Shown here in pieces: positions 12,595 to 57,973 of a DNA stretch of 64,000 nt (the stretch's first letter is position 1; each line of letters begins with the position of its first letter). Position numbers and translations under genes: made by a program. Under the pieces are notes generated by a model. That model saw only the letters and a list, made by a program, of their open reading frames with translations, ran no database searches and was not told where the DNA came from. The stretch is from Pachysolen tannophilus NRRL Y-2460. Taxonomy: Eukaryota. The stretch spans positions 439,944-503,943 of the forward strand of contig KV454018.1 of NCBI GenBank assembly GCA_001661245.1. The letters are read 5' to 3'.

Positions 12595-14937
12595 CTATAA
12601 ATGTGGAATACCTAAACTCGTAAATAACATTGTAAGACAACTTAATAAACCTTCTCCTAAAACTAAACCGCTAGAAAACACAATCATACGAATTTTCCCA
12701 TCATGACTATGATTACAATGCCTTAACCAGAAATAAGCAATCATTCCTCCAACAAACCTTGCTAATGTGAAAGATGGAGTATTATAAATACCAATACCAA
12801 CAGCAACACCGCTTGGTAAATAAACTAATTTACTATGAATATTATGACTTTTAGGGTAAATATTTTTAAGTAATGAAATAATAACAAATACAACCATAAA
12901 GAAAATTGAAAATCCCAAAGCATATTTTGGTAATCCCTTACCAGTAACTAATCTTGAACAATCAATCCAAATAACAGCAGTTGGAACTCTAAAGATTTTA
13001 CCAGGTATTTCATAAACCAGATTATAAATTTTGTACATAATTGATGATAAGAAAATTGAATAAGTTGCACCGATAAGCTGAGCTATAAATTGAGCTTGAG
13101 GTGAAGCTCCAATAAGATGCCCCGTTTTCAAATCTTGCATCAAATCACCAGCCTGTTGAGCACCTGCTTCAGCTATACCACCAGCAACTAAATTTATTAA
13201 TACTGCACCTGGAACAGAATTTGGAATAACTAATGCAAAAAACAATTGAGATAATTTCCCAATTCCACTAACTGGATTCAAATCTGTTTCTCCTAATGCT
13301 CTGACACCTAAAACAGAAAGAAAAAGTGACAAGATTATTGATATCACCAAGGCATATACTGGTATCACTGGTCCAAATACTAATCTAACAGCAATAATAC
13401 ATCCAATTGATGATATTATCAACCCTATAATCGTGACACGCATTGAAACCAAATGACTTGGGTCTAAATCAATATCTGCTTTGTCCAGTACTTCATCTAT
13501 AAAGCTAGACTTGTTATGAGAAATTTCTTCGGTATTATTATCTTCTTCGTGTTCACCATGGTAAGCACTACTATGTGGTTGATTATTAGAACCACGATCT
13601 ACACGTGTATGAATTAAAGGATGTTCATCGGCAGCATCATTCGTAGTGGCACTTACCGTTTCCAAATACCTTCTGTTTACTGTATAACTCAGGTATAATT
13701 GAAATAATGATCTGATAGTGACGACCAAGAATGATACCACAGAATCTGCAACCATCACCGATAAACTTATCCATAATATCCATCCCTGTCCACCATCTTT
13801 CCAATCATCAATCTCTCCTGGAGCCCATTCAAAATATTTCAGCATAGGTGCCAATATTCCCCACCCTAATATAGCACCGACTAACATATATGATACAGTC
13901 AGGGGTCCCATTATAATACCTTGACCAACGTATGCTGGAGATGGTTGAAAATTCCAAAGATAATTTTGTGAAAGATATGAAGAAAAAATTGGCAATGATC
14001 TCAAGATGGGTATAAAATAAGCCAATATTGTATAAAAAGCAGATAATGAGAAAGTTATAGTTAAAGCTCTAATATTTTTTCTATATGTTTCAACCCTTTT
14101 CAAAGGATCAATATCTTGAGCTTCAATTATTGTTAAATTACTTCCTCTTCCATTTTGAATATTTATATTAATTTGCTCTCCTTGTGGGAATTGTTGTTCA
14201 TCGTCCAAGATAACTGTTCTTGCTTCATCGTTTTGTGATTCTTCATTCTCTGACTCATTAATACTACTAGCGATTTCATTACTTGAACTTCCATCACCGT
14301 CATCTGTTCTATCTGTATTGTCAATCTTACTTGCTGATGGGTTAACTTCATTTTCATCATCTTGAAAATCATCATAGATTTCAGTATTGTGTAAAACAGA
14401 AATCAATGTTGCAGTGGCACTTCCACTAGGAAATGGTAATTTTTCTTTTATAACTACTTGTTTTCTCAATGGAACTGCAAAGAAAACTCCAAAAAATGCT
14501 AATCCAGTAGACCAAATACATAATTGTAATAATGATAATTGAATTGGTTTATCTAAACCACTTTCCTCCACAGTTAAAAATTTTTCAAGAGCAGGTATTA
14601 TTCCAACAAATCCATATGCTAAAGGACCAGTACCTACCGCAACAGCAATACTCTGTACAAATACATTTTCCACATCTGTAAATTTATAATTTAAATAAGA
14701 TTGTAATGATTTAAACATTGCAAAACCTAATAACGCAGACGGTAAAGACATCATTGAAACCCAACCTGTTTGTAATCCAAATTGAAAATTTGAAATCAAA
14801 ACTATAGTACCTATTATCAAACCAGCAATAGTTGATCTTAACGTTATTTGAGGTAATATGGCCTTTGCCGACCATTTAGCATATTTTGACATTGTATAAT
14901 CCTCTTCTCTTGAGTTCACCCCTCTATCAGTAGACAT
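12595..14937 (-). CDS. OPT/YSL-family oligopeptide transporter (YGL114W-like)
   Basis: NFQFGLQTGWVSMMSLP, LPFPSGSATA, SPAYVGQGIIMG, GETDLNPVSGIGK, GDLMQDLKTGHL, with many TM segments. Confidence 0.92.
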   Translation of the reverse strand: MSTDRGVNSREEDYTMSKYAKWSAKAILPQITLRSTIAGLIIGTIVLISNFQFGLQTGWVSMMSLPSALLGFAMFKSLQSYLNYKFTDVENVFVQSIAVAVGTGPLAYGFVGIIPALEKFLTVEESGLDKPIQLSLLQLCIWSTGLAFFGVFFAVPLRKQVVIKEKLPFPSGSATATLISVLHNTEIYDDFQDDENEVNPSASKIDNTDRTDDGDGSSSNEIASSINESENEESQNDEARTVILDDEQQFPQGEQININIQNGRGSNLTIIEAQDIDPLKRVETYRKNIRALTITFSLSAFYTILAYFIPILRSLPIFSSYLSQNYLWNFQPSPAYVGQGIIMGPLTVSYMLVGAILGWGILAPMLKYFEWAPGEIDDWKDGGQGWILWISLSVMVADSVVSFLVVTIRSLFQLYLSYTVNRRYLETVSATTNDAADEHPLIHTRVDRGSNNQPHSSAYHGEHEEDNNTEEISHNKSSFIDEVLDKADIDLDPSHLVSMRVTIIGLIISSIGCIIAVRLVFGPVIPVYALVISIILSLFLSVLGVRALGETDLNPVSGIGKLSQLFFALVIPNSVPGAVLINLVAGGIAEAGAQQAGDLMQDLKTGHLIGASPQAQFIAQLIGATYSIFLSSIMYKIYNLVYEIPGKIFRVPTAVIWIDCSRLVTGKGLPKYALGFSIFFMVVFVIISLLKNIYPKSHNIHSKLVYLPSGVAVGIGIYNTPSFTLARFVGGMIAYFWLRHCNHSHDGKIRMIVFSSGLVLGEGLLSCLTMLFTSLGIPHL

Positions 14938-15426
14938 TTTCTCATTGATAATAAATTACAATTTTATGTTCTCAACTTTCTTTTATACTTCAACGGCAAC
15001 GGACCTATTTCCTAAATTAAAGAGCAAAATAAAGAAGAAGATGAAGAATAAAAGGCTAAAAAAAAAGGCTAAAAAAAAAACAAAAAAACACCTTCAAAAC
15101 TCCAGCAAAATAAATAAATAAAAACAAATCAATAGAGAGGATTTCCCTAAATGCGATTCCAATTAACTATCTCTTTTCTTTTCTTATTTACAATTGTTAT
15201 AAATATTGTATTTACTTTTATTCTTTTAATTTGTAATAATTTATAGACTATTTTTCATATTCTTCGCTTATCACTAGATGGTGAAAGAGTTTCCCTTTTA
15301 GGTTACTTATCGAGAGAATAGATTTTAGTTGAAGAAAACAGCAAAAAAACCCAAATAATTGGTTCAAAAAAAAATTAAAAACGTAGCTAGCTGATCATTT
15401 TATTTATGTTATTTATGTTATTTAAT

Positions 15427-16596
15427 CTACAGTTCGAGTTGAACGTCATCGTCGTCATCATTATTATTATTATCATCATCACCATCCAGGTCACCGAATA
15501 AGATATATTTCAAGATATCACTTAAAGTGATAACACTTATCAATTTTCCATTTTCATCTACAATGAATAATCTGTGTAATCTTGATTTTCTTATTGTTTC
15601 CATGATTGTGCTTAGTCTATCGTTTAGAGTACAAGTGTAAACGCCTTCGAAATCTTCGGATCTTCTCATCAATGCTTCACCTACACTTAGTGATAAATCT
15701 GTATATAAACCACCTTTTATCAAAGTAAGGACATCATAAGCTTCATAAACGTTGATTAACTTATCGTTTTCATCCACTATTGGCACTGAGGAGACGGAAT
15801 TTTGTGATAAGACATGAATAACGTCAATTACAGGGGTTTCCATTGTAGCTCTTAACATTTGTTTCTCAGTTCCTATATTTATATCTTTTAAAGGTCTTAA
15901 TAACATTCTTGTTTCACGACAATTTAATGCCACGAATTTCAAGATTCTATATTGAGTCAATACAGAGACAACAATTTCTCTATTTGTCTTTTCATCTTCA
16001 TCAATTAAAGGTATTCTTCTTGCCTTTGAGTCTATCATCTTAACACATGCTTCATATAACGATTTAAAAGGATGACTTGATATTGTTTCTATTGGTTCCA
16101 CTGAAATTGCCTTTTCAACATCTCTTAAACCATCCAAGGTTAATTTTTCTACCAAATCAAATTTATCAGGGAATTGAAAATAATATTGTATAACGTTAAT
16201 AAAATCAGAAGAAGTTAAAAGTCCAGCAAATCTTGAAGTCTTATTATTCCAAAGTGGAGCTGATACAATTGAATTTTGTAACAAGATATTTAAAGATTTC
16301 TTGACCAACAATGAAGTATCCAATACAATTAACCTATATGAAACAGGTAATACATCATAAGAAGTTTTACTTTTTAAAAAAAGCCTTATTGCTCTTAACG
16401 CTATTTTTTGATCCTTAGCAATTTGTTCCGTAGTTAATGAAGAAACCAAATCCTTATGATGATGATGGTGATGATATGATGGAGAACTAGCATCAGCAGA
16501 TGTAGAAGACGACGTGGAAGCTGTTTGAAGCAACAGCAGCTGCAGTTGTTGTTGCTGTTGCTGTTGTTGTTGTTGCTGTTGTGATACGGATGACAT
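15427..16596 (-). CDS. SNF4: AMPK gamma subunit Snf4 (4 CBS domains)
   Basis: KTSYDVLPVSYRLIVLDTSLLVKKSLNILLQNSIVSAPLW, VSVLTQYRILKFVALN. Confidence 0.97.
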   Translation of the reverse strand: MSSVSQQQQQQQQQQQQLQLLLLQTASTSSSTSADASSPSYHHHHHHKDLVSSLTTEQIAKDQKIALRAIRLFLKSKTSYDVLPVSYRLIVLDTSLLVKKSLNILLQNSIVSAPLWNNKTSRFAGLLTSSDFINVIQYYFQFPDKFDLVEKLTLDGLRDVEKAISVEPIETISSHPFKSLYEACVKMIDSKARRIPLIDEDEKTNREIVVSVLTQYRILKFVALNCRETRMLLRPLKDINIGTEKQMLRATMETPVIDVIHVLSQNSVSSVPIVDENDKLINVYEAYDVLTLIKGGLYTDLSLSVGEALMRRSEDFEGVYTCTLNDRLSTIMETIRKSRLHRLFIVDENGKLISVITLSDILKYILFGDLDGDDDNNNNDDDDDVQLEL

Positions 16597-17078
16597 GTCA
16601 ATAAATAACTACCTCAGGCAAAAAAAAAAACCCAATTTGTGAAATTTTATTCTAATTTATTCTAATTTAATTTAATTTATTAATATAATATATGCCTTAT
16701 CATTCAATCAAACAAAAATTTCTCTCTTCCTATTGACCTATTAGGATATATAACTTAAAATTACTTCAAATTTATTAATATTAATAAATCATTAATTATA
16801 TATAGTATTTAACCTTTTCTATTTTCTCTGTTCTCTGTCCTCTGTTCTTTACCTTTAAACAACCAAACACCAAATAAGGTATAAAACAAATATTTCCCGA
16901 ATCGGTAATTACATACACGACTTCCAAAAACAGCTTTTTTATTGTTTCTAAACACGCCTTTTTGTTTTAAAACGAAAAGGGAAAGATGAAAGCAAAGAAT
17001 CAATTTACCCTACTTTTGAAAAGTTTTACAAGTTTACCCGGACTTTGAAGAAAAAAAAATTTTTGATTTTCTTTTTGG

Positions 17079-17086
17079 TATAAATA
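17079..17086 (+). promoter_or_regulatory. TATA box of the U2 snRNA gene
   Basis: TATAAATA about 40 nt upstream of the U2 5' end. Confidence 0.6.
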
Positions 17087-17123
17087 GAGCTGTTTCCCCT
17101 TTAGAAATCCTATTTTTTGAAAA

Positions 17124-17335: not shown

Positions 17336-17420
17336 TTTAAAACTTTTTAAAAAAAAAANAATAATAATATATTATTTATTTATTTTATTTATTTATTTAT
17401 TATTATTATATATATATATA

Positions 17421-17797
17421 NNNNNNNNNNNNNNNNNNNNNNNNNNNNNNNNNNNNNNNNNNNNNNNNNNNNNNNNNNNNNNNNNNNNNNNNNNNNNNNN
17501 NNNNNNNNNNNNNNNNNNNNNNNNNNNNNNNNNNNNNNNNNNNNNNNNNNNNNNNNNNNNNNNNNNNNNNNNNNNNNNNNNNNNNNNNNNNNNNNNNNNN
17601 NNNNNNNNNNNNNNNNNNNNNNNNNNNNNNNNNNNNNNNNNNNNNNNNNNNNNNNNNNNNNNNNNNNNNNNNNNNNNNNNNNNNNNNNNNNNNNNNNNNN
17701 NNNNNNNNNNNNNNNNNNNNNNNNNNNNNNNNNNNNNNNNNNNNNNNNNNNNNNNNNNNNNNNNNNNNNNNNNNNNNNNNNNNNNNNNNNNNNNNNN
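17421..17797. other. Assembly gap
   Basis: Run of N flanked by AT microsatellite and poly-T. Confidence 0.99.
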
Positions 17798-20154: not shown

Positions 20155-22974
20155 TTAGACAACAGTTTCGTAGAGTCTTTTTTTAGCCTTTTTAGCTTCA
20201 AAGTCTCTTTGATCATATTCATCAACGAATTCGGTGTTGTGGTTTAAGTTCCATTGATTTCTTAAAAATTTCAATCCAACCAAATTAAATCCTAAAGAAT
20301 CAACATTTTCTTGTAATTGTGATCTTAATTGTTTTTTCAAATTAATGATTTGTTTTTTTAAATCATCATTTCTTTGTGAAGCCAATTCTTTAAAATTTGT
20401 TCTAATAATGAAAAATAAAACCTTGCAGAAAAGTTGTAAATTGATAATATTATGAGATATATTTTCATTATTTGTCCAAATTTGAATAAATTTTAACAAA
20501 TTTAGTGAGTATGAAAAGGGTAATACTAATAATGCATCTTCTAATTGTGCAGCTCTAATTTTTAAAATTGTTTGTAATAAATATTCATCCAGAGTCAAAT
20601 TTAATGCTCTTAATATTGGATTCGAATTAGGCTCATTTGCTGAAGCTATATCCAAAGCCTCTATTAATTTTTCACCTGCTTTTAAAGATTCCATTGTCTG
20701 TTTGTGTATCCTAGTGGCTTCATCATCAATAACTTCCTCGCCACCTTCTTCGGTACCGGTGGTCTTTGCTATTGGTTGTTCATCACCTTCACCTTCTAAA
20801 GAAGCCAACAAAGTTGATTCATATTGCTCGTCCATTTCCTTTTCACGTTCTTCTTCAATGAAAACTTGATCATCAGTTATTGCCCAAACTCTAATACTGT
20901 GATCATGTGAAGAACTTACCAAGAATTCTCCGTCGCTACTAACTGCTAAAGACCAAACTTCTGATTGATGCAGAGCTAGTTTTTGAATACATTCAAATTT
21001 ATCACCATCCCAATATTTAATTAGTCCATCTTTACCTGCACTGAAAAAATTATGTGAATTTGGTATAAATTTAACATTCATAATAGAATCTTGATGTCCG
21101 AAAATTGATTTATGACAATCACCAAAATCCAACCCCCATATTTTGATATTTTTATCAGCAGAAGAAGTTATAATAAGTTTAGAATCAAAAGAAATATCAA
21201 TTGATAATACTGGTAACTTATGTCCATATAAACTTAAGAAAAATTTCAAACTATCGAAAAAGAAAACTTTAACAGTATTATCCAATAATGATACAGCCAA
21301 TAATTTAGAATCTGGAGAAATTCTAATACTAAGAATATCATCATTTAATTCTAAAGTTTTACTATGGAATAATTTCATCTTTGGAATCAATCTTTCTGTA
21401 CCTGGAACAAGTTCATTTTCAATTTTAAAATCCCAAAATTTAACTGTCTTATCAGCTGATCCTGTGACTAAACTCTTACCATCATTGCTTATGTCTAATG
21501 ACCAAATAGCACCTCCGTGAGCTTCACTTACAGACTCTAATAGAGTAGATGATGCTAAGTCGTACAATTCAATTTCACCATTTCTAGTACCAATAACTAC
21601 CAATGTACCTCCTGGTAAAAATTTACATGTTAATGCATAACCACATTCAAAAGTCCTGATACAATTTGTAAGTTTAATATTCCAAATTTTTAACAATCCA
21701 TTTGATGAAGTGGCCAAAAGCTTATTATCATCACTAAGATCAATAGATCTAACATCTGTTCTATGACCTTGTAACTCGATTGAATATTGTTTCAATGGTT
21801 GAATAGAATCACTGTTACTTGATAATTTCTTGATACTTTCAGGTAATGAAACCCTATAATATTCAATAGAATTGTTATTCAATGAAATTAAAATTTCTAA
21901 ATTTTTTAAATTTGATAACAAAGACCATTGACAACTTTTAACTTTGGCAGGACATCTAATAATTGTAAAACTTGTAACTGTCATGTTTATTTCTGAATTT
22001 TTAAAACTTTCTTCAATTTCTAAATCATCATAACCTTTTTCTTTTAATCTTTTCTCTCTTTTCAACTTTGCCTTTTTAATTTCATCTTCAGTTCTTATTC
22101 TAAAAATTTCAATCGTCTTGTCAGAATTTTGAGTATAAAAAAATAATAATTTATCATTTAATTTTTTAAATGAAATATCAATACATCTTGATTTACTTTG
22201 TTTTTCAAATATTCCAATTTCAATTATTTTAGTAGTATCTTGATTTAAATCAATTTTCCAAAATTTTAATTGATTTTCAATACCACTAGTTATACAAAAT
22301 TGTTTCTCATATATTCCTAAAGACCAACACTCACCCGAATGAGCAACATGTGTTTCAACGCATTGTTGAGATTTTAAATCCCATAACTTAATTAATCCAT
22401 CTTTTGAAGTACTCAAGAGCCAATCTTCCAATTCATCATCACTGGCCATATCATCTTCGGATAAAAACTGCAACCCTGTAATTTGATCTTTATGTGATTT
22501 CAATTTAAATAATCCAACTTCACCAACAAGGTCCCATAGCATTATGGTCGAATCTTTTGACCCAGAACATAACCTTGTACCAGTTCTATCAAATTTCAAT
22601 ATTGTTATAGATGATTTATGTCCAGTAAAATTTATTAATACAGAATTGGAAGCCAAATCCCAAATTTTAATAACTCCATCTCTGTAACCTACTGCCAAAA
22701 TATTTGTTAAATCATGATACTGTAAATAAGTAATCTCTGAAGGTGGAGCTGAAGTAATTGAATTTGCAGCACCAGGCAGGATACCATCTCTCAATTTATC
22801 CAATAATTCACCTGCCTTAATATCCCATATTAAAATCTCTTCTAATCCCGCAGTAATGGCCCTACAACCTTTCAGCTTCGAACCCAAAGCAGAGCCCAAG
22901 CATAAAATGTTACTGTTAGAGGATAACACACCAAAACTACGCTCTTGTTCATATCTCTGGTATGACTTCACCAT
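20155..22974 (-). CDS. DIP2: SSU processome WD40 protein Dip2/Utp12
   Basis: MVKSYQRYEQ, multiple WD40 repeats, KFFLSLYGHKLPVLSIDIS, MESLKAGEKLIEAL, LEDALLVLPFSY. Confidence 0.97.
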   Translation of the reverse strand: MVKSYQRYEQERSFGVLSSNSNILCLGSALGSKLKGCRAITAGLEEILIWDIKAGELLDKLRDGILPGAANSITSAPPSEITYLQYHDLTNILAVGYRDGVIKIWDLASNSVLINFTGHKSSITILKFDRTGTRLCSGSKDSTIMLWDLVGEVGLFKLKSHKDQITGLQFLSEDDMASDDELEDWLLSTSKDGLIKLWDLKSQQCVETHVAHSGECWSLGIYEKQFCITSGIENQLKFWKIDLNQDTTKIIEIGIFEKQSKSRCIDISFKKLNDKLLFFYTQNSDKTIEIFRIRTEDEIKKAKLKREKRLKEKGYDDLEIEESFKNSEINMTVTSFTIIRCPAKVKSCQWSLLSNLKNLEILISLNNNSIEYYRVSLPESIKKLSSNSDSIQPLKQYSIELQGHRTDVRSIDLSDDNKLLATSSNGLLKIWNIKLTNCIRTFECGYALTCKFLPGGTLVVIGTRNGEIELYDLASSTLLESVSEAHGGAIWSLDISNDGKSLVTGSADKTVKFWDFKIENELVPGTERLIPKMKLFHSKTLELNDDILSIRISPDSKLLAVSLLDNTVKVFFFDSLKFFLSLYGHKLPVLSIDISFDSKLIITSSADKNIKIWGLDFGDCHKSIFGHQDSIMNVKFIPNSHNFFSAGKDGLIKYWDGDKFECIQKLALHQSEVWSLAVSSDGEFLVSSSHDHSIRVWAITDDQVFIEEEREKEMDEQYESTLLASLEGEGDEQPIAKTTGTEEGGEEVIDDEATRIHKQTMESLKAGEKLIEALDIASANEPNSNPILRALNLTLDEYLLQTILKIRAAQLEDALLVLPFSYSLNLLKFIQIWTNNENISHNIINLQLFCKVLFFIIRTNFKELASQRNDDLKKQIINLKKQLRSQLQENVDSLGFNLVGLKFLRNQWNLNHNTEFVDEYDQRDFEAKKAKKRLYETVV

Positions 22975-26809: not shown

Positions 26810-29800
26810 TTAAACTGTGGTTTCTAAAACTTTTTCTACTATTTCTAAAACATCATTTCCAGTAAAATCGACATTATCACTGTTACCAGGAACGGCCAAT
26901 TTTTGGGCAATAATATTATCCAATAATATTCTCAATTGTTTAATTAAGACGGCATTCTTGCACCATGTCCTAATAGGTAACCAATTATCCAACACAATAA
27001 AAGATGATGAATTGATCAGCCCCAAATCGTAAGTTATTGATCCACCAAACAACAACACAGAAAGAGTTGATGTAGGAGTTATATCACGAAGATATAATTT
27101 TGTAGTATGTTGTGATGATTGATATGCAATAAATGCAGACTTTGACAACAAGTTATCTTTATTTTTAGAAACACGTTGAGCAGATGGAGTAAAATCGTAA
27201 TCTTCTGATACAGAAATTTCGTCCCCTTGAATATTTCCCCCATTACCAGAAAATAAAACTGATGAAGGATGAATAAAAGCTCTTGTCGCCGGTAATTCCT
27301 TGTTTTCTTTTTCCTTATCTCTATCAATATGTGCATTGGAGTTAGTTGGTATTCCAGTATAGTTTTCATTCCGGATCCATAGTTTTATATTTTTAGCATC
27401 TGGATCCATTGCGATTGCTCCAGAACTACTTGAAGAGTATTTTGTATCCGGTAACTCAACTCTTGAAATTTGAGGATAAAATGATCCTGTTATAATTGCC
27501 CTTATGACATTAGAGTTATTCCTATTTCTGTTCAAATAGGTGGAATCAGAAGAATACTTGAATGGGATAAAGCCTAATTCTCTTAAAATAGAGACGTATT
27601 GTGCTCTTGTAGATTCAATGTCCTTCATTTTCCTGTATGACAAATAGTTGTTGTCCAACCAATTTTTCAAATAACTTGAAGATGCTTTCTCTTTAATCAA
27701 CTCATGATATTTATCGTAAGAATTAACAATTGCCATCAAATCGCCTTGACCGTTGCTAAAAGAATTTTGAACTTTCTTAACAATTTCTCTTTTTTCAAAA
27801 TTATTTATAAAAGTGCTACCGTTTGTTGATATCGACGCCAATGTCAAACAGATATCTAAGCAACCAAAAATAGTACCAAAAATTAACAATTTACCTGATT
27901 GTAGATCAGTCGGTAACATGGACAAGTAAGAACCTAAATTTGTCAAATTATCATCAACAATAGCGCCAATTTCTTCCAAAAACTGCTTCGATTTTATCAA
28001 GGATTCTTCCTCTGGTGGATCTATGTTGTTTTTAAGAAAACTGGACACATCGCTGATTCCCATTGATTTAACAATCAAATAAACATTTTCCAATCTAGTT
28101 CTTTTAATTTCCGGAATAGGTTGGCTCAACATATTTGACTCTGTTTCTTTTGTATATAATCTATAGCAGTTACCATCCCTCACACGGCCAGATCTACCTC
28201 TTCTTTGGTTTACTTCTGCTTTTGAGCACCAATTTTCTATTAATTTTGTTGTGTTTAACTTTGCATCATAAAATAGAGATTTGGATCTACCAGAATCAAT
28301 TACAGCAACGACATCCGGGATGGTGATAGAAGTTTCTGCAACATTTGTTGAAACGACAACTTTCCTGACACTGTTCGAAGAAGGAATCTGAAAAACCTTT
28401 TTCTGATCATTGGAAGATAATGCAGAATGTAGCGGTAATAAAAACAATTTCCTACCATGATTATTGAAACTATTATCAATATTTCTAATGCACTGATTGA
28501 TCTCCATAATACCTGGTAAAAATATCAATATAGAACCAAAATTTGATTCATTAGCCATATCCTTATCTACTTTGATCACCAACTTGGAGATCAAATCATA
28601 ATTAATATTTCCAGTAGCAAAAAATTTCGAGCTTGCCTTTGGTCTTAGTTCTCCTTCCTCTCCATTCATATAATTTTCAGCATTATTACTTTTTATGGTG
28701 AAATCGATGTCTTCCAAAATTTCATCCAAATAGTAGTCCTTAATAGGAAAAGTCCTACCTGAAATATGGACATGAGACAATTGATCATCAAAGAAGCTTT
28801 TGAATACAGATATGTTGATCGTAGCTGACATTAAAATGATTTTTAAATGAGGATAATTTGATCTAATTTTTTTCAAAATTATTAAAAGAAAATCACTATC
28901 AATGGATCTTTCATGTACTTCATCTATGAAAATGTAGCCCACGCTATCGAAAACTTTGGATGATGAAGCGTCTTTATTCATTAATAGTCCTTGAATCATT
29001 CTTAATAGAACTCCCGTAGTTACAAAAGAAATCCTAGTTCTATTGGAAGTTTTATTTTCACCTCTAATGATATAACCAGTTTCTTCGCCGCATTTCTCAC
29101 ATCTTTCCTCTGAAATTCTTTCCGCTAAACCTATTGTAGAAATACGTCTAGGTTGGGTGCATAAGATAGAATGATTAAAATCTCCTTTAGAATTCATGTA
29201 GTCTAAAATAAACTGAACAATTTGAGTAGATTTACCTGAACCGGTTTCACCAGTTACTAAAGTAACTTTATTAGAATTAATAATTTCAATTAGTTCATCT
29301 TTTTTAGACCAAGCTGGTAATTTTGATCTTTTCAGTAATGATTGTAAGACTTCTGAAGATTTTAGCTTCAATTCGTATTTTGTTTTTAATTCTTCTGTAT
29401 TATCAATAGTTTGAAATGTTCTGTTAGATTTCTTATTGGATTTCCTAGTGGTATTATCAGGGATTACTTGATTTCTTTCAAATTTATGAATTTTCTTTAA
29501 ATTTGGATCAAACAATGGGCCCGGATCTTCAATGATCTGAGAGATATTTTCATTTAACCAGTCCACACACGAATGAATAATACAATCTCCTAGTAACTCA
29601 TAGTTTATGATATACTTTAATAATTTTTGAATAATAGAGATTTTGATATAACTTGCCAATTTGTAAGAAGAATTATTAACCACCAAGTACAATCCCGGAA
29701 TTGAATTTGGGTATTTCTGAGATTTATAAACTTTCAAGCTCAACAATCCAGGTTTCAAATGTTCTGGATTCAATTTAATTTCAATTGTTTGCTCATCAAT

Positions 29801-39650: not shown

Positions 39651-42600
39651 CTATTCATATTGTTTCTCCTCAACAGGTAATATAATATCTTCATCTACTA
39701 TGATAACTTTTGTCAGATTCGCTTCTGATTCATCTTCTTTTTGTTCTTCCTTTTCTACGCTACTATTACTATGATTATGGAGATCAGAATCAGAATCCTT
39801 TTTTGGTGGTACCGGTGAATTTAAAAATGGAGATTTATCACTAGTAACAGGTGATTTTACGGAAGGTGATTTTCCTGATCCTATGATATATGAACAGTCT
39901 TCACATGTATCACACACATGATTATCTTTTTTCCATGGATCCATATCATAGTTTTCGATTTTTCCATGTCTTGGATGGAATACTTTCTGGTAAGCTCTAA
40001 TTCTTCTTCTTGAAAGTCTTTCTTTAAAAGATTTTGTTGTTTTCAAAGAAGTTGTTGATTTTATAGATTTTATAGATTTCAGTGTTGGAAGAGGTTGTAA
40101 TTCTTCATTTTCGCACTCTAAATCCATAGTCTTGTCATTTTTATGTTTTTTCTTCCTTTTTTCCTTCTTTGGCTTCTTGAGTTTTTTCTGCTTTTCATCT
40201 TTTTTTTCATGTTCATCCTCATCTTGTTCTTTTTCTTGTTCATTTTTTACTTCTCCTTCTTGTTCTTCTTCTTTTTCTTCTTTTTCTTCTTCGATAGACT
40301 GTTTTGTATCCATGGTCACCACTGATGTATCTTTTGACTCTTCAATTGTATAATTATTCTCATTATTTTTCCTTCTTCTAAAAATTCTGAAATGACGTCT
40401 ATTTTGCTTTTGAACAGAACTTGAACCTTTTAAATTCTCAATTTCATTTGCTGTTTCTGCTTCTGCTTCTATTTCTGTTACTGCTTTTCCTCCTCTTTCT
40501 GCTTCTGTTTTTTCTTCTGCTCCTGAATCTTGGGTTACTGGTGAGTGAAATTGAGTTTCTGTTTCTACATCTACCATTGTTTCAGCTTCATTCAAATTAA
40601 AACTAGTTTCATTTCCCAAAGCTAAAGATTCGTCTTTTTGTATTTGACTTAAATCTTCAGTATCAGATTCTGTCAAGAGATGCTTTTCAACAAATTCCGA
40701 AATATCATTATATCCGTCAATTGAATATGAGGTTCTAACAGTTTTAGCTGTTTCCAACTCTTTTTCTTCTTCTTCTTCTTCTTCTTCTTCATCTTCAAAG
40801 TTTGCGTTTGTAATTTTTGGACTAGTGACGCTAGAGATTTGCTCACTTAAATTTTCCTTTGAATGGGGATGCAGACTCAAATTATCATCTTCAATATCAC
40901 TCTTGACAAGAGCATGTTCCCCAATATTTAAAGCAGGAACATCCATTACAGTAGGACTATGATCTGGTTCAAACAATTCAGCCTTTAGTTGATCATCTGT
41001 ATTACTTTCATCTTTTAATAAATCATTGTTATTATTATTATCGGTTTTTTCAACATTATCAAAAAGCATATCTTTTATACTTCTAGCAGAAGATTTTCTC
41101 TTTTTCAAAGATAAATTCAACAGACTTCTGGTTTCAAATTTTTTTGTAGTTACTTGTGTTTCATCTTCTTCTTCATTATCATCATCAAAATCAACATTAT
41201 CATTAGATATCAGTGTAATATCAAATATATCTGAATCAATTCTTGCATCTTTCAAATCCAAAGGAGTTATTGTTTGAGTACTTTTATCGATAACATCAAT
41301 TTCTCTTTCCATAAAGATGAATCTTTCCATACTCTGATCCGAGACATCTAAACCTTCACTATTTTTTTTACTATTCCTGTAAATACGAGAGTTTAAATTT
41401 AAATCTGAAAATTTTGAAACTAAAGATCCTAAAGAATTTACTCTTTTCTTACTCGATGAGCTATAATTTCTATTTGAATTAGGACTTGACTTTCTTGAAA
41501 ATTTAGTTTCAAAATCAGCAGTAGATGAGCTACTATTTTTAGCTATAGATTTATGATTTTTAATTTTGGTGTCTAAAAAGACAACAGTCTTTTTGGAATT
41601 TGGTCTTGTTATACTTTTATAACTTTTACCACTGCCACTTCTTGTATTTTTCTTTGTACTTGTAGCTACATTTATATCTGAATTTTTCCATAAATCGTCT
41701 TTGCAATCGAAATGGTAATCAAGGGTATCATAAAAAATCTCAGTACTAGAAAATGCAGATTCCGTTTTGCTTCCAGGAAGAAAAGCTGAAGATGATCCAA
41801 CTACAATTCCATCAACGGGAGTTTTTGGAGATTCAGAATCTGATCTACTTCTTGAATTTGATTTTCTGAAATTATTGTTTAATTCAATTTCATTTTGATC
41901 AGAGTCTTTTCCTTCTGAATTAGAAGGTGATAAGGAAAAATCATAATTTCCTTCAAAATTAGAATGTAAATGTGATTGTGATTGTGATTGTGAGGTCGAT
42001 GGTGAGGTCGATGGTGAGGGCGAGGCCGACAAGTTGGTGTATGAGTGGGAAAGGTTGTGTAAACGTGAGCGTGAGCGTGAACGTGAATGTGAACGTGGAC
42101 TTGAACGCAAAGGCGATCGTAATGGCGATTGCCGCAAAGACGAGCGCAAGGGAGAACGCAAGGGAGAACGCAAATTTAAATGAGAATGAGAATTAGAATT
42201 AGAATCTGATAGTTTACCGCTGAGGGGACTTTCTGGAGGAGGAGAAGTAGGAGTACCTGTTGATTTTGAAAATAAGTTTTGTCTTTTTTTTGATTTTAAA
42301 GCTTTTGTTTTCATATTTTTTGACTTTTTCTCTCTTTTTGATTCATCTTCATCATCAGCATTATCATCATCATCAGGAGAAGATACAAGTTTCATCTTCG
42401 GATTAGCTTCTGATAATGTCAAATTTTGAACTTCTTGTCTACCATAACTATATGGATAAAAATTATCTAAATCAATTTCAAAATTCATACCATCTTCTTT
42501 TTCTTTAATTTTACCACCACTTCTTGGGAAACCAAATGATATAAAACTTTTCTTTTTTTATTTGAACTTAAATTTGAATCATAAATTAAATTTTCTTTAT

Positions 42601-43207
42601 CTTCCATTCTTTTTTTACGTAATATTGGACTTGAATTTCTTGTTATAATTCCAGATATTTTTTCAAAATTTTCTACTGCAATTGCTGGTTTTGAAGGAGA
42701 CAGTCTTGAAGATGAAGAAAAATTTGATATTGAATTTTTTTTTTGCCCGCCTCTCCTAACAGTAGTTGCCATATCAGTAGTAGTTGTTGCCGTTGCAGGT
42801 GGAGTTTTATTAACATTTGATAAATTTAAATAACGACTTGTATCTTGTGATAAAAACCCATTTCTAAAAGTATCATCACCTGGACCAGCACCAGCACCAG
42901 CACCAGAACCAGAACCTGCAACAACACCGTCATCAGTACCAGCGCCACTCTTTATTAAAAAGGAAGAAGGACTCCTACCACTATTATTTTTATTGTTTTT
43001 ATTACTTTTTGAATTCTTCATTTTAGTTTTCAAAGTTGATGTCGATCTCGAAATAGAATTCGATCTTGATCTTGATCTCAAACTCGAGGGAGTTACCGTT
43101 ACCCCTTTTTCGGAACCAGCCGAGGTTGGTAATTTAAACTCATCCTTGAATGAAAACAACTTGGAAGAGCAGTAACACAGTACTGACGACCCATCCGCTT
43201 CCTTCAT
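39651..43207 (-). CDS. Large Ser/Lys/Glu-rich disordered protein, probably one gene split by a frameshift near 42553-42559
   Basis: Overlapping 240-aa and 945-aa ORFs of similar composition. One extra A in the A7 run gives NKKKKSFISFGFPRSGGKIKEKEDGMNF. No family recognised. Confidence 0.6.
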
Positions 43208-44135
43208 TGAAACAACAAAAAAAAAAAGAAAAGGAAACCTCTATTCTATTGTTTAAAGCCGTATTATTATTGGGGGTAACTTTCAAAAAAAAGGGGTGTC
43301 AATTTTTTTTTATATATTATTAAAAAAAAAAAACCCAATTGTATCAACTAATGAAACAACCCAGCAAAGATCTAATAAGGTCAAGATATATATGAAATAT
43401 AATTGTGTTCTTGAATTAAAGAAAAAAGAAAAATAAAAGAAAAAGGTCAAATTAAAAACTCGTTGACGCCGTTGTATAGTTATTGATAAAAAGAAAAAAC
43501 AAAAGGGGGTAATTTGCGTTTTTGTGTAATTAATACTCAAAAATAGATGAGGATGAGGATGAGCATGAGCATTATTACACGGTAGTGTATTTCATTCAAA
43601 TATTTCCGAAAACGGGATAGAAAAAACATACAAAGAAAAAAGAAAGAAATGTCCGATCAAATACCCGAAACCAATTTCCCCCTCTTCCACATATATATAT
43701 ATATGTAATAGTTGAAAAGGGACTATAATAGTCATTTAACCACTTTGCGAATCATTGAATACCAGAAAAAAAAATAAAAAAAAAAATTTAAAAAACTACA
43801 ATCTCAATTCCAATTGATGTTAGAAAATTTCTCTCTTAATCTTTTTAACCTGTTATAAATCTATTTACCTAATAAATTTCTATTTCTTCTAGTTCCCTAA
43901 AGTTTTATAGTTACCCTACCGTAAAGTCATCATGAGTAAAGTCTATCCTGAAACCTGAAATTTACGCAGACACAGCAATCACAAGTAAAAAAAAAAAAAA
44001 AAAAAATTTTTTCTCTTACAAATTCACTACTCAATTTTCTCCTTTGTTACCTCTCTCCGCCCAAACAGTCCGCCCAACCACCGGCAAACAAGTGGCCAAC
44101 CCTGGAAAAAGAAAAGAAAAAAAAAGAAAAAAAAA

Positions 44136-44874
44136 NNNNNNNNNNNNNNNNNNNNNNNNNNNNNNNNNNNNNNNNNNNNNNNNNNNNNNNNNNNNNNNNN
44201 NNNNNNNNNNNNNNNNNNNNNNNNNNNNNNNNNNNNNNNNNNNNNNNNNNNNNNNNNNNNNNNNNNNNNNNNNNNNNNNNNNNNNNNNNNNNNNNNNNNN
44301 NNNNNNNNNNNNNNNNNNNNNNNNNNNNNNNNNNNNNNNNNNNNNNNNNNNNNNNNNNNNNNNNNNNNNNNNNNNNNNNNNNNNNNNNNNNNNNNNNNNN
44401 NNNNNNNNNNNNNNNNNNNNNNNNNNNNNNNNNNNNNNNNNNNNNNNNNNNNNNNNNNNNNNNNNNNNNNNNNNNNNNNNNNNNNNNNNNNNNNNNNNNN
44501 NNNNNNNNNNNNNNNNNNNNNNNNNNNNNNNNNNNNNNNNNNNNNNNNNNNNNNNNNNNNNNNNNNNNNNNNNNNNNNNNNNNNNNNNNNNNNNNNNNNN
44601 NNNNNNNNNNNNNNNNNNNNNNNNNNNNNNNNNNNNNNNNNNNNNNNNNNNNNNNNNNNNNNNNNNNNNNNNNNNNNNNNNNNNNNNNNNNNNNNNNNNN
44701 NNNNNNNNNNNNNNNNNNNNNNNNNNNNNNNNNNNNNNNNNNNNNNNNNNNNNNNNNNNNNNNNNNNNNNNNNNNNNNNNNNNNNNNNNNNNNNNNNNNN
44801 NNNNNNNNNNNNNNNNNNNNNNNNNNNNNNNNNNNNNNNNNNNNNNNNNNNNNNNNNNNNNNNNNNNNNNNNNN
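44136..44874. other. Assembly gap covering the 5' part of TEF1
   Basis: Run of N. Confidence 0.99.
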
Positions 44875-45492
44875 ATTGGTGGTATTGGTACGGTGCCAGT
44901 TGGTAGAGTTGAAACCGGTGTCATTAAAGCCGGTATGGTTGTCACTTTTGCCCCAGCTGGTGTCACCACTGAAGTTAAATCCGTTGAAATGCACCACGAA
45001 ACTTTAACCGAAGGTCTTCCAGGTGACAATGTTGGTTTCAACGTTAAGAACGTTTCCGTTAAAGAAATTAGAAGAGGTAACGTTTGTGGTGATTCAAAGA
45101 ATGATCCACCAAAAGGTTGTGATTCCTTTGCTGCTCAAGTTATTGTCTTGAACCATCCAGGTCAAATCTCTGCTGGTTACTCTCCAGTCTTGGATTGTCA
45201 TACTGCTCATATTGCTTGTAAATTCGACACCTTGATTGAAAAAATTGATAGAAGAACTGGTAAGAAATTAGAAGAAAATCCTAAATTTGTTAAATCTGGT
45301 GATGCTTGTATCGTTAAGATGGTTCCAACCAAACCAATGTGTGTTGAAGCTTACTCCGACTACCCACCATTAGGTAGATTCGCTGTCAGAGATATGAGAC
45401 AAACCGTTGCTGTTGGTGTTATCAAATCTGTCGAAAAATCAGACAAGGCTGGTAAGGTTACAAAAGCTGCTCAAAAAGCTGCCAAGAAATAA
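44875..45492 (+). CDS. TEF1: Translation elongation factor eEF1A, 3' part
   Basis: [15 protein letters not shown]...[21 protein letters not shown]...KAAQKAAKK, with strong codon bias. Confidence 0.98.
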
Positions 45493-49089: not shown

Positions 49090-50886
49090 TTAAGGCAACA
49101 AGACATTCAAGATTTCAACTAAATGATCACATTCTTCGCTGAACTTAACTTTTTCAAGACCAACACATTGATATCTAACTCTAACATTACCGTTATAATT
49201 ATCTTGTCTTGCTCTAATTCTGAAATTAAATTCATTCATTTGTAATTTCTGGAAAAAAGTAGCAGAATCACCATTATTTTCCATAATTTCATTTGCTGTT
49301 GTACCATCCAATAATGATTCGACTTCATTATTGAACAAAGTTAACCAAAGTTGACCACTGTGATCGATAACGCTTATAGTTAATATATAACGATAATTTG
49401 GAGTTTCAAAACTCTTGTCACATTTTTCACATCTCCATGATCCATCTGGTTGTTCCAAGACTTTCCTATTACAACCTTCAGTTGAGCAAGCAGGATAACA
49501 AAAATTTTCTGTTCTTATGAAATTTATTGAAGCTTTTATTGAAAAATAATCCAGTTTATCATTCATACCAAGATTTTCATTTTGTGCCTCCAATATAGTT
49601 TTCCTTTCATTTAAATTGATACCACCTGCAGAACTCATAGTTTCTACTTTCAAAGATTTGAATTGTTCATGAATACCTTGTTTATCATACCATCCTTTTA
49701 ATTGAAAAGCTTCAGGAATATCAGGGTTTGATACAATAGTAGCTGAAGGTGTTAATGATAAACTTCTTCCACCAAAATCTTGTACTTTTGCACCCTTGAT
49801 GACAACAATTGAGCCTTCATTTAAATTGAAATCTATAGCACTTTTATTCCATAATCCTACAGTAATTGCAAAATGTGATTCATCAACAATTACAATATCT
49901 CTTCTATCGAATGGTCTACCAGTGGATTTAGCTACAATTTGGAAAGCTGGATTAACTTCTTTCAAGACACCAACAACATCGATCACAGCATTAGCTTCCA
50001 AATCTTGAATTTTATTAAGTTTTACAAAATTAAAATTTAATTTTGGTACATCTGCAGCATCTTCACATTCTTCAATTTCTGTATCTCTATCCAAAGATAA
50101 TTCATATGGATGACTCAAGTTTGAGAATTGAGGTTTTGCTTGTTGGATTCTTGCCTTTGATATATAATAAACTTTTCCTTCTTGTAATAAATCATAAAAT
50201 TTATCTGCAATATCATTAAAAGCAGTTGCTCTAATCTCATTTGTTTCGTCTAATAAATTAACATTAAACAATTTACCTTCCCCCTTTTGATTCGACCAAG
50301 TTCTCATATCGGATTTGTAAGAAACTCTTGCTTTTATAGTCCAATTATTTTGATAAGGAGAAAGCTGATCAATTGCATATATGTTGGCACGGCTTTCAGG
50401 TCTTTTCTGAACTGGTACCTGTTGTTGTTGTACAGATTGTACAGGTAACAGTGGTTTTGATTGATCATCAACCCCTTCTCCAACAAAAAAATCTTCTTCT
50501 GGATGTTCATTAAAGTAATCATCTATATTAGTAGTACTTCCTTGACCATATCTTGGAGCTGTTGGTTGTACAACTTTTAATTCACTAATAATCAATACTC
50601 TCTTATTATTACTCATTTTTTCAGAATCATAATCCAATAAAGTAACTATCGATGACTTCTTCAAACCTTGCAGTTCAGCAGCATCAACAAATTCCGGCCT
50701 AATCACACCATGAACAGTATAAGACCCATCCGATATAATCAATCTTAATCTTTTACCTTGATCATTAGGTACTTGCTTAATATTAGTAACTTGAAGTGTA
50801 ACCGGATGATTCTCCAGAAATGGCTTTGATTTACTAAAAATAGTATGCAAAACCTTATCATCAATTGCAACAGGAGCAGCCATCAT
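49090..50886 (-). CDS. RFA1: Replication protein A large subunit Rfa1
   Basis: IDQLSPYQNNWTIKARVSYKS, GEGKLFNVNLLDE, EIRATAFN, C4 zinc motif YPAC..CNRKV..WRCEKC. Confidence 0.97.
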   Translation of the reverse strand: MMAAPVAIDDKVLHTIFSKSKPFLENHPVTLQVTNIKQVPNDQGKRLRLIISDGSYTVHGVIRPEFVDAAELQGLKKSSIVTLLDYDSEKMSNNKRVLIISELKVVQPTAPRYGQGSTTNIDDYFNEHPEEDFFVGEGVDDQSKPLLPVQSVQQQQVPVQKRPESRANIYAIDQLSPYQNNWTIKARVSYKSDMRTWSNQKGEGKLFNVNLLDETNEIRATAFNDIADKFYDLLQEGKVYYISKARIQQAKPQFSNLSHPYELSLDRDTEIEECEDAADVPKLNFNFVKLNKIQDLEANAVIDVVGVLKEVNPAFQIVAKSTGRPFDRRDIVIVDESHFAITVGLWNKSAIDFNLNEGSIVVIKGAKVQDFGGRSLSLTPSATIVSNPDIPEAFQLKGWYDKQGIHEQFKSLKVETMSSAGGINLNERKTILEAQNENLGMNDKLDYFSIKASINFIRTENFCYPACSTEGCNRKVLEQPDGSWRCEKCDKSFETPNYRYILTISVIDHSGQLWLTLFNNEVESLLDGTTANEIMENNGDSATFFQKLQMNEFNFRIRARQDNYNGNVRVRYQCVGLEKVKFSEECDHLVEILNVLLP

Positions 50887-52728: not shown

Positions 52729-52890
52729 ACTATGTGAAAAATCGAGGTCGTTTACAGAATATTAATATTTTGGGGTAAGTAGTTATTTCAAAAAGTTGGT
52801 GATGTATTTTAATAAATAATAAATAGATATTGAAGAACTTGAAATTGCAATTTAAAAGTAGATAGAGTAAATGATAGTAGGATTGGAAAA

Positions 52891-53847: not shown

Positions 53848-54226
53848 TGGAAAAGTTATTTCTTACCAAGCAAAACAAAACAATAAATAGATTTCTTCAT
53901 TTTACTTTATATAAATTTGTAGTAATATAAAACTAAAATATATATATATAAAGTCCAAACAATTTATTTCCCTTCTTTGTCCATAAACACCACACAAAAG
54001 ATAATATATAATACGACATCACATTTTTGTACCTAAAACCGATAACAACAACAAAAAACTGAAACGAAAAAATGAAAAACTAAAACGCTAATAAATGATC
54101 AAATATCGTCCAAAATGACTGTACAAATAGATATTTAAAAATACAGAAGAAAAAAAAAGAAAAAAGACAAAATCTTTTTTTAAGCAACAGAAAACTGAAG
54201 ATTCACATGGAACCTAAATTGAAAGG

Positions 54227-57200
54227 CTAAACTTCGTCAGAATTATTTGCACCACCTAACTCCTTTGAAGGTCTATGCCATCCAGCAACAGCACCTCCAA
54301 CCGCAGTAGGAACCATGGCTAATGCAGAGATAGCAGAAAGTGTAGATTGCTGTCCATCATTGTTCGTCAAAGTTGATGCATTACTACTATAATTTGAATT
54401 TGAACGTGATACTCTCCAGTCGTGATACATCTTGATTGGATTATGGGTTGGAGAATTTTCTGATTTTAGTTGTATAATCTCCTCCTTGGCTTTTCTGAAA
54501 GGTGGTATGGCTTCGTATAAAGGTGATAATTCTAAGTCATCTTCCGGGTACGGATTTTTTGGTCTTCTTTGGTTTCTTAAAAATCTAAATGTACCCAAAT
54601 AAACCAAAATTCTATAAAGTCTTGTTGGGAATACTCTGACTACCCACTTATCTGGAATAATACGAATTATCCAACCAGCTGGAAACGAAACTAAACCACA
54701 AATAATAGCAGTACCCCACATAGCTCCTGTTTGTCTTGCTATAGAAAAGGCAGCACCACCAACAAACATTATAAGAATTTGAAATCCACCAATAATTGCA
54801 GCAATACCAACAAAATACCAGTTTCTGAAAACATGCTGTGAAAAATCAAGGTTATCTCTATTAAGTCTTTGCTTTACTGTTTCCAAGCCATCACCTTCAT
54901 CCAATTTTCTAGAAACAAAAAGAGCAAAAAATTGTAACCAAACAAATGCATTGAATGTCATTGCAGATAATTGAGTTGATTGGTGGTCATTAATATCTTT
55001 TGTACCAAAGAAAATTTGAGCTCCTGCAAAATGTAATACAAAAGTGATCACCAATTGAACCATTGATTGTCCCATTATCATTTTCCACATTGCAACTGAA
55101 ATCAATGGTTGTGATCTACCAGCTGGGGTTCTATTTAACATACTGTCATCTGGTTTATCAGTAGCCAATGCCAATGCAGCTAATGTATCCATGATCAAAT
55201 TAACCCATAATAACTGAACTGCTGTCAAGACAGAAGATCCACTAGATGAAGCAACAGCAGACACAAAAGTTAACACAACTGCAGTTACATTTACAGTCAA
55301 TTGAAATTGGATGAACTTCTTGATCGAAGCAGCTACAGTTCGACCCCATTTAATAGCATCAACAATTGATTTAAAATCATCAGTCATCAATATAATATCT
55401 GAAGCTTCTCTAGCAACTTCTGTTCCTGAGATACCCATTGAAAATCCAACATCTGCCAACTTTAAAGCAGGTGCATCATTTGTTCCATCACCGGTTACTG
55501 CTACAACTTCCCCCATATCTCTTAAAGTTTTGACTAAAATTCTTTTATCTTCTGGAGAAGACCTTGCCAATACTTTTAATTGAGGAACAATATTATCTCT
55601 TTCAGTTTGTGAAAGTTTTCTAAATACTGGGCCTTCCATACAAGCTTTTGGATTATCTAAATCTTCTTCCTGTAAAATATTACAAGCAAATGAAATTGCC
55701 TTTGCAGTTGTTATATTATCACCAGTAACCATTCTTACAACTACACCTGCTCTTTGACATTGTTCAACTGCTCCTGGAACTCCTGGTCTTAAAGGATCTT
55801 GAATTCCAACTAATGAATCCATAACCAACCCAGCTGATGAACCTTCAATTTTTAAAGCACTATCACTACTACCATCATTAATTTTAAGATGGTTATCAAT
55901 TTCAATAGGTTGACCAAATAATTTATCAGGATCGGCTTCTTCAGGATTATCATCAATCAATTCTTGTGGAGGCCAAGATTTCAATCCAATAAAATCCTTA
56001 TGAGCCATTAAAATTGTCCTTAAAGCATCTTTAGCAAATTCTTCAATTTTACTATTCACAAAAGTTTGTGATGATTGATTTAATTTAAGAACTTGAGATC
56101 CATCATCAGACATTCTAGAATCACATCTAGAGAAAACAATTTCTGATGCACCTTTAACATAAAATCGATAACCATTTTCAACTTTAAGTACAATCCCACC
56201 CCATTTTCTACTACTTTCAAATGGAATCAACTGTACAATTTTTGATTTATAACCATCTCTTAGATCATCTAAAGATTGAGATTCAAATGTTTGAAATGAA
56301 TCTTGTAACATAATCAACAATGCTGTTTCAGTTTTACTACCAACAAATGGTTCAGATAATTGTGGAGATACTTGTTTTTTAGTTTTTTTTAAAGAATACC
56401 AATGTGCTCTTACTGGAGGATTTAAAATATCATCAGCTTCTATATCTACTTCTTCAAGTTGTTTATTTGGGAAAGCTGAAGAATTTAATGAAATATTTTC
56501 AACAATTAATTTTTTCAAATTTCCACCTAATTGATGATCATCAATAATATCAATAGAACTTTCCAATTTAGAATTAACTGTATCATCAAATTCCAAATTT
56601 CCAAATAAACCTTTAACTACTCTCATTCTGTTTAAAGTTAATGTACCTGTTTTATCGGAACAAACTGCTGTAGCACCTCCCATTGTTTCACATGATCTTA
56701 AGACTCTAACCAAGTTACCATCTTTCATCATTCTTGTAGTAGCAAATGCCAATGCTAATGTTACAGCTAATGGTAAACCTTCAGGTACAGCAACCACAAC
56801 TATTGTTATTGCTGTTATTACTATATTTAAAAACTTTGTACCCTTTTCAGTTGGTGCCAAATCATAATATGAATGACCTTTTGGTAATAAACACAAGAAT
56901 CTTATGAAAAGTACAATAAATAATAGCAGAGCAGCTAATAATCCAAATTTCAGAATACCATCAGCTAATGCGGTTAATCTTGCTTGTAAAGGAGTTTCTT
57001 CAGGTTCAACTTTTAAAGATATTAAAGTTCTTCCATGAATTGAATTTGGACCAATTGCAGTGACAACAGCTTTACCAACACCTGATAATAATTTTGAACC
57101 TGAAATTAACATTGGATCTGGAACATTTTTAAAACCAATATCTTCATCATTTGAAAAATTTTCTTCATATAATCTTAAAGCCAAATCTGCAGATAATTTT

Positions 57201-57973
57201 TTAATAGTATTAGTTTCACCTGTTAACAGAGATTCATCACATTCACAACTTCCAGAAACTAATATACAATCTGCGGGTACTATATCACCAGTTTCAAGTC
57301 CCAATATATCTCCAACTACTAAATCATAAATTGATATTACTTCTTTCACTCCACTTCTATAAACAATAATATCTCTATCATCTTTTTTAGAATTAAGTTT
57401 TGTAAATTGTTTTTCCTTTTGATAATCATTTACTGCACCTACAACAACAACAATTAATATTGCAACTATAATCGCCACACCTTCAACCCATTCAACTTTT
57501 GGTTGTGGATTACCTTCATCATCATATTCAACTGGTTGACCAAAAGTTTCATATAAACCTAATGCCAATGAAACAATGGCGGCTATTGATAACATAATCA
57601 ATACTTTATCTTGTAATGCTTCCCATGCTAATTTGAAAAAAGATTTTGGTGGTCTTGAAGGTAATCTATTTTCACCATAAATTTTTTGCCTCACCACTTT
57701 ATCTGGAAGATCTTTATCTAATCCATTTTCAAAATCAGTATTAAATTCATGTTTAATTCTTTCTATTCCTCCAATCTCTTTTAATTTTAATATCGATTTT
57801 GGATCATGCAAATCTGTTAATTCTTCTGTTGTTAAATTGAACCCATTAGTCAACTCGTGTGATCTTGATCCTGAATCTAATCCCGATCCTGATCCCGATC
57901 CTGATCCGGTTGTTGTTATTGTTCTTGTTCTTGTAGAATCCAACCTTATAGGATTTCCTGAACTTTTCATCAT
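54227..57973 (-). CDS. PMC1: Vacuolar P2B-type Ca2+-ATPase Pmc1
   Basis: VVVAVPEGLPLAVT, CSDKTGTLT, MVTGDN, VAVTGDGTNDAPAL, LWVNLIMDTLAALAL. First ATG at 57973. Confidence 0.97.
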   Translation of the reverse strand: MMKSSGNPIRLDSTRTRTITTTGSGSGSGSGLDSGSRSHELTNGFNLTTEELTDLHDPKSILKLKEIGGIERIKHEFNTDFENGLDKDLPDKVVRQKIYGENRLPSRPPKSFFKLAWEALQDKVLIMLSIAAIVSLALGLYETFGQPVEYDDEGNPQPKVEWVEGVAIIVAILIVVVVGAVNDYQKEKQFTKLNSKKDDRDIIVYRSGVKEVISIYDLVVGDILGLETGDIVPADCILVSGSCECDESLLTGETNTIKKLSADLALRLYEENFSNDEDIGFKNVPDPMLISGSKLLSGVGKAVVTAIGPNSIHGRTLISLKVEPEETPLQARLTALADGILKFGLLAALLLFIVLFIRFLCLLPKGHSYYDLAPTEKGTKFLNIVITAITIVVVAVPEGLPLAVTLALAFATTRMMKDGNLVRVLRSCETMGGATAVCSDKTGTLTLNRMRVVKGLFGNLEFDDTVNSKLESSIDIIDDHQLGGNLKKLIVENISLNSSAFPNKQLEEVDIEADDILNPPVRAHWYSLKKTKKQVSPQLSEPFVGSKTETALLIMLQDSFQTFESQSLDDLRDGYKSKIVQLIPFESSRKWGGIVLKVENGYRFYVKGASEIVFSRCDSRMSDDGSQVLKLNQSSQTFVNSKIEEFAKDALRTILMAHKDFIGLKSWPPQELIDDNPEEADPDKLFGQPIEIDNHLKINDGSSDSALKIEGSSAGLVMDSLVGIQDPLRPGVPGAVEQCQRAGVVVRMVTGDNITTAKAISFACNILQEEDLDNPKACMEGPVFRKLSQTERDNIVPQLKVLARSSPEDKRILVKTLRDMGEVVAVTGDGTNDAPALKLADVGFSMGISGTEVAREASDIILMTDDFKSIVDAIKWGRTVAASIKKFIQFQLTVNVTAVVLTFVSAVASSSGSSVLTAVQLLWVNLIMDTLAALALATDKPDDSMLNRTPAGRSQPLISVAMWKMIMGQSMVQLVITFVLHFAGAQIFFGTKDINDHQSTQLSAMTFNAFVWLQFFALFVSRKLDEGDGLETVKQRLNRDNLDFSQHVFRNWYFVGIAAIIGGFQILIMFVGGAAFSIARQTGAMWGTAIICGLVSFPAGWIIRIIPDKWVVRVFPTRLYRILVYLGTFRFLRNQRRPKNPYPEDDLELSPLYEAIPPFRKAKEEIIQLKSENSPTHNPIKMYHDWRVSRSNSNYSSNASTLTNNDGQQSTLSAISALAMVPTAVGGAVAGWHRPSKELGGANNSDEV

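Follow-up and report, generated by a model that had tools for sequence, protein, structure and literature searches.

The stretch of DNA analysed here, a window of 64,000 nucleotides in all, is a gene-dense piece of a budding-yeast chromosome in which the meaning of one codon, CTG, is at issue. The G+C content of the window is 29.7%; that of Pachysolen tannophilus is roughly 30%. The window carries 24 real open reading frames (ORFs) of at least 200 aa, most of which received a Pfam label: COG3, VPS41, a KH protein, SWC5/BCNT, an oligopeptide transporter (OPT), a CBS protein, a ZIP transporter, DIP2/UTP12, APC2, a YLR419W/DHX29-like helicase, a Rad51-like protein, a DUF3533/SNG1 protein, a globin, RFA1, a WD40 protein, a PMC1-like Ca-ATPase, a LETM1-like protein and a CwfJ/Cwf19-like protein. 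Four of these genes recur below: the OPT ORF (12595–14937, minus strand; PF03169; 5 CTG codons), the helicase ORF (26810–31060, minus strand; labelled by Pfam; 6 CTG codons), the DUF3533/SNG1-family ORF (33455–35194, plus strand; PF12051; 7 CTG codons) and the CwfJ/Cwf19-like ORF (61367–63391, minus strand; PF04676 and PF04677; 6 CTG codons). A 25th ORF (44031–44924, minus strand, 297 aa) was left out as an artefact, not a gene: a scaffold gap of 739 N (44136–44874) makes up almost all of it. A second gap, 377 N at 17421–17797, lies between the CBS and ZIP genes. Five sequencing runs containing the stretch are listed, from two studies, and one of them may be its source; none of those listed is RNA.

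How common is CTG in these genes? We counted 94 CTG codons among the 15,678 codons of the 24 ORFs (3.9 per ORF), with at least one in 23/24. Position-specific base use would give 73, not far from this number, so CTG is neither unusually rare nor depleted overall; an earlier note on this DNA, made from the sequence alone, had called these codons rare. For comparison, the published Pachysolen set holds 16,824 CUG codons in 5,288 proteins (PMC4937558). The LETM1-like ORF (plus strand) contains a run of six CTG (60054–60071) right after nine CAA, and the whole (CAA)9(CTG)6 tract (60027–60071) reads Q9A6 under translation table 26, in which CUG is Ala, Q9L6 under the standard code and Q9S6 under table 12. 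CTG codons also occur within glutamine runs or next to them, both in the KH ORF (9476–10894, minus strand; QQ[CTG]QQQ and E[CTG]QHQQQ) and at the N-terminus of the CBS ORF (15430–16596, minus strand), which suggests that CTG codons were born from CAG within low-complexity tracts.

Which residue does CUG specify in this DNA? Public copies of three of the ORFs bear directly on this question. The proteins P0001 (OPT), P0121 (SNG1-like) and P0361 (CwfJ) each equal the table 26 translation of the window letter for letter; under tables 1 and 12 they differ from it at 5/780, 7/579 and 6/674 residues, respectively. All of these differences sit exactly at the 18 CTG codons of the three ORFs, and all 18 are Ala in the public records. 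This shows that the annotator of the window DNA used CTG = Ala and, because the public copies equal table 26 translations, that the genome already stands in the databases under a known code. The reading CUG = Ala, which the earlier note had proposed from the letters, is thus supported.

We also collected and aligned homologues of four ORFs (119 for OPT, 119 for the SNG1-like protein, 120 for the helicase and 148 for CwfJ) and scored every window codon, in a Codetta-like manner, by how frequent each residue is in the column where the codon falls. The four genes hold 24 CTG codons, 17 of which fall in columns at least 80% occupied by homologues. Over these 17 sites Ala scores best, with summed log-odds of +0.5 for Ala, −5.7 for Ser and −18.5 for Leu, and CTG is the sole codon with more than two sites in the four families at which the best residue is not the standard one. 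The Leu-minus-Ala score at CTG was −18.9, whereas nothing below +41.7 arose when sets of 17 true Leu-codon sites were drawn 10,000 times, and the mean Leu frequency was 0.087 in CTG columns as opposed to 0.594 at other Leu codons. The Ala-minus-Ser score was +6.2, more than the highest value (+3.4) that true Ser-codon sites gave when drawn 10,000 times. Alignments to solved structures added 12 usable sites (PMC1, DIP2, RFA1, VPS41 and APC2); in the KH-domain ORF, 0/4 CTG codons fell within the region aligned to a solved structure. Altogether 46 of the 94 CTG codons were examined, and 29 of them had a usable aligned column. These columns are mostly polar (K, S, E, Q, N, D, P), those of the helicase being variable as well (K, Q/N/A, E/G/S, S/K/E/A and S/T/G).

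Seven CTG codons had been put forward by the earlier note as standing where homologues have Ala or another small residue. All seven are in frame on the minus strand (cag on the plus strand) at the positions it gave. At OPT codon 366 (WGILAPM[CTG]K, 13840–13842) the homologue column holds A 68, S 43, V 5 and L 3 (n = 119) and P0001 has A, whereas OPT codon 346 (IIMGP[CTG]T, 13900–13902) stands in a column of Pro (106/119), not Ala, the homologues reading MGLP where the window has MGP-CTG. In DIP2/UTP12, codon 668 (QKLA[CTG]HQSEVW, 20971–20973) corresponds to A and codon 795 (LNLT[CTG]DEY, 20590–20592) to P in S. cerevisiae Utp12. RFA1 codon 445 (NDK[CTG]DYF, 49552–49554) matches P in a Ustilago chain and in human RPA70, and G in S. 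cerevisiae Rfa1. The PMC1-like Ca2+-ATPase has two of the seven: codon 249 (DES[CTG]LTGE, 57227–57229), which is S in three plasma-membrane Ca-ATPases and I in SERCA2, and codon 341 (DGI[CTG]KFG, 56951–56953), with G, G, G and S in the homologues; a further CTG of this ORF, codon 349 (56927–56929, minus strand), aligns with A, A, A and I. A small residue or proline, not Leu, was therefore found at 7/7 sites, but Ala leads the homologue column at only two of them. Judged from these columns, "small residue" sites picked by hand would fail to tell Ala from Ser in this lineage.

To which lineage does the window belong? The helicase was used for a maximum-likelihood tree (26 rows and 1,441 columns from a single gene, with group labels partly from general taxonomy and no named Alaninales row), which placed the window inside Pichiomycetes (Shimodaira–Hasegawa-like approximate likelihood ratio test, 100). 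The tree kept the window apart from both the CUG-Ser1 clade (support 92) and core Pichiales (89), in a poorly supported basal fork with Komagataella. The Ala clade sits in this region of the trees given in PMC5951914 and PMC4986446. Among the matches listed, the best non-self ones for OPT, SNG1 and the helicase are 53–60% identical and come from Candida boidinii, Komagataella, Kuraishia, C. arabinofermentans and Babjeviella; the named P. tannophilus proteins listed in the SNG1 search are paralogues only (42% and 36% identity). The source organism is most likely Pachysolen tannophilus. CUG-Ala decoding was discovered in this species (PMC4937558); the Ala clade is made up of the genera Pachysolen, Nakazawaea and Peterozyma (PMC5951914), as the earlier note had stated. 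For these genera CUG-Ala is published with mass spectrometry (PMC4937558, PMC5951914), and it is the diagnostic character of the order Alaninales (PMC11182611). The reassignment would have been new, in the words of that note, only for an organism outside this clade, and the evidence points instead to Pachysolen tannophilus itself. Thus, CUG = Ala is right for this DNA, already public and not new.

We therefore regard the window as nuclear DNA of a CUG-Ala budding yeast (Alaninales, NCBI code 26), most likely Pachysolen tannophilus, with a probability of about 0.93. Several observations, given here and with the alternatives that follow, weigh against this reading. A database translation records what an annotator chose and is no measurement. 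The decoding tRNA is unseen: ARAGORN found no tRNA gene in the 64-kb window. The species call leans partly on an absence, as no named P. tannophilus orthologue of the OPT, SNG1-like or helicase protein appeared among the 120 matches listed; on the simplest reading, the absent orthologue is the window's own protein. Finally, the window alignments reject Leu firmly but do not by themselves prove Ala. They do not clearly separate Ala from Ser, and the argument built on the seven sites was weaker than its conclusion.

The separation of Ala from Ser matters because CUG could be read as Ser (table 12), as it is in the CUG-Ser1 (Candida/Debaryomyces) and CUG-Ser2 (Ascoidea/Saccharomycopsis) yeasts. 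Among the 29 usable CTG columns, the commonest homologue residue is Ser in 5, Pro in 4, Lys in 4, Ala in only 3, Gly in 3, Leu in 1 and some other residue in 9, a weaker pattern over the window than the earlier note implied; averaged over the columns of CTG sites, S has a frequency of 0.143 and A of 0.119. The Ala-minus-Ser score, at +6.2, also falls short of the 1st percentile (+14.8) of true Ala-codon draws, and it drops to about +2 at an occupancy threshold of 50%. The tabulation of CTG columns that the earlier note had proposed strongly rejects Leu but barely separates Ala from Ser (17 to 29 sites). This matches the literature, in which similar alignment evidence once led to a Ser assignment: a 2014 alignment study reported CUG of Pachysolen as never at conserved Leu and put the species in the Ser code (PMC4986446), and proteomics later gave Ala, not Ser (PMC4937558). 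Against Ser stand the 18/18 Ala of the public records, the Ala-minus-Ser score that 0/10,000 true Ser draws reached, and the position of the window outside the Ser1 clade.

The placement of CTG relative to conserved residues also argues against Ser. We took as conserved any column of the four aligned ORFs (12598–14937, 26813–31060, 33455–35191 and 61370–63391) with at least 70% of one residue among the homologues. Ser-conserved columns are occupied in the window by 65 Ser codons and 0 CTG (4.5 expected, P = 0.01). A different pattern is seen in the public homologues P0106, P0112 and P0342–P0347, which show L at many conserved Ser columns (9/26 in P0342, 7/37 in P0112 and 6/37 in P0106, a named Metschnikowia bicuspidata record); L at such positions is the signature of CUG-Ser yeasts translated by the standard code. 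The corresponding mark of CUG-Ala relatives translated by the standard code, L at conserved Ala columns, was seen in none of the homologues, the most being 2/22 in Lachancea and Saccharomycodes rows. With this evidence on both sides, we consider it very improbable that CUG is Ser in this DNA.

A second possibility is that CUG is decoded ambiguously, as Ala and another residue, or inefficiently, and is tolerated only at unconstrained positions. Ala fares no better than Ser by the same count: Ala-conserved columns hold 57 GCN codons and 0 CTG (7.4 expected, P = 3.5e-4). The 131 Leu-conserved columns hold 130 standard Leu codons and 1 CTG (9.1 expected, P = 9e-4), and this CTG, CwfJ codon 300, is the sole one at any conserved Ala, Ser or Leu column. 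CTG thus avoids the conserved positions of each candidate residue, as expected of a poorly or ambiguously decoded codon. However, mutational history explains this avoidance equally well: because no GCN codon is one mutation away from CTG, entry of CUG would be limited to substitution-tolerant positions, and we infer that a captured CUG enters only where passage via other residues is tolerated. A footprint of the one-step neighbours (P, Q, R, L, V and M) was not clear in the CTG columns with 17 sites; enrichment was 1.4 for P, 1.36 for Q, 0.96 for R, 0.83 for L, 0.71 for M and 0.64 for V, and K (1.95) and H (2.2) exceed these. Stochastic decoding of CUG, as Ser or Leu, is described in Ascoidea asiatica (PMC6041473). 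In Pachysolen, by contrast, liquid chromatography coupled to tandem mass spectrometry gave Ala at 97.2% of 907 fully supported CUG positions (PMC4937558), and the CTG of the window, with 94 codons for 73 expected, is not depleted overall. There is little to recommend ambiguous or inefficient decoding over clean decoding as Ala. A similarly small chance attaches to a variant of the CUG-Ala reading itself, in which the window would come from a CUG-Ala yeast outside the described Alaninales genera, or CUG would be decoded less cleanly than published, its avoidance of conserved columns then reflecting selection against an error-prone codon and not just mutational history.

Least probable of all, to the point of being negligible, is the standard code, with CUG as an ordinary rare Leu codon of an AT-rich genome and the seven sites as a chance selection: the near-expected number of CTG codons, the Leu column at CwfJ codon 300 (L 104/148; 78% Leu), which also counts against Ala, and several CTGs in membrane segments whose hydrophobic character would suit Leu (SNG1 codons 147 and 406, PMC1 codon 349) are outweighed by the strongly negative Leu-minus-Ala score, the low Leu frequency and mostly polar character of CTG columns, the single CTG among 131 Leu-conserved positions and a public record without Leu.

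What would be the mechanism of the change to Ala? In the steps drawn from the literature, the ancestral tRNA-Leu(CAG) would have been lost, and a duplicated alanine tRNA would then have gained the anticodon CAG. Alanyl-tRNA synthetase would recognise the acceptor stem (G3:U70, A73) of this tRNA; because the enzyme ignores the anticodon, the CAG tRNA would still be charged with Ala, which would then be inserted at CUG. The Pachysolen tRNA(CAG) is described as an anticodon-mutated alanine tRNA with A73, a G3:U70 pair and no extended variable loop, which probably arose from a duplicated tRNA-Ala(UGC) via CGC, followed by insertion of A into the anticodon (PMC4937558). After this capture, CUG codons may have re-populated the genes, coming to lie at variable, substitution-tolerant positions and not at conserved Ala, Ser or Leu, as the pattern in the window suggests. 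Only the tRNA or peptides settle Ala against other residues.

Nuclear reassignment of a sense codon is rare. CUG-Ala, one of a small number of examples, was described in a 2016 publication, has been given a separate NCBI table and defines a yeast order. For the window, the practical consequence is that its DNA needs table 26, as the standard code puts at least one wrong residue into 23 of the 24 ORFs.

Two features of the gene order were also observed. The minus-strand ORFs at 39651–42488 (945 aa) and 42485–43207 (240 aa), neither of which matched a Pfam family, have 4 bases in common; a frameshift, an intron or an assembly error may have divided what is a single gene. The OPT and helicase genes lie 12 kb apart in the window; in Candida arabinofermentans, their homologues (P0046 and P0243) are on one contig of 397,009 bases, where their locus tags (CANARDRAFT_8747 and _8750) differ by three, and the helicase and OPT Pfam domains occur together in P0250, a Spathaspora record of 2,146 aa. 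These records hint that the linkage of OPT and helicase is conserved.

How does the window compare with the known codes for CUG? With the code of Pachysolen tannophilus (table 26) it shares Ala at all 18 CTG codons in the public translations of three ORFs, the absence of CTG from conserved Leu positions as reported in PMC4986446 (bar one of 131 here), AT-rich genes, the density of CTG and a tree position outside both Ser1 and core Pichiales; comparison from the window genes alone found no difference. The CUG-Ser1 code of Candida and Debaryomyces (table 12, Serinales) took the same codon from Leu, likewise a rare codon in AT-rich genomes, and there too the synthetase of the capturing tRNA ignores the anticodon (PMC4937558). 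It differs in its residue, Ser in place of Ala, in the frequency of CTG at conserved Ser columns (up to 9/26 there versus 0/65 in the window) and in its clade, which excludes the window in the helicase tree. The CUG-Ser2 code of Ascoidea and Saccharomycopsis is an independent reassignment of the same codon within the budding yeasts (PMC5951914). Its residue and lineage again differ from those of the window, to which the OPT proteins of Ascoidea and Saccharomycopsis are 55–56% identical, no closer than those of Pichiales or Serinales.

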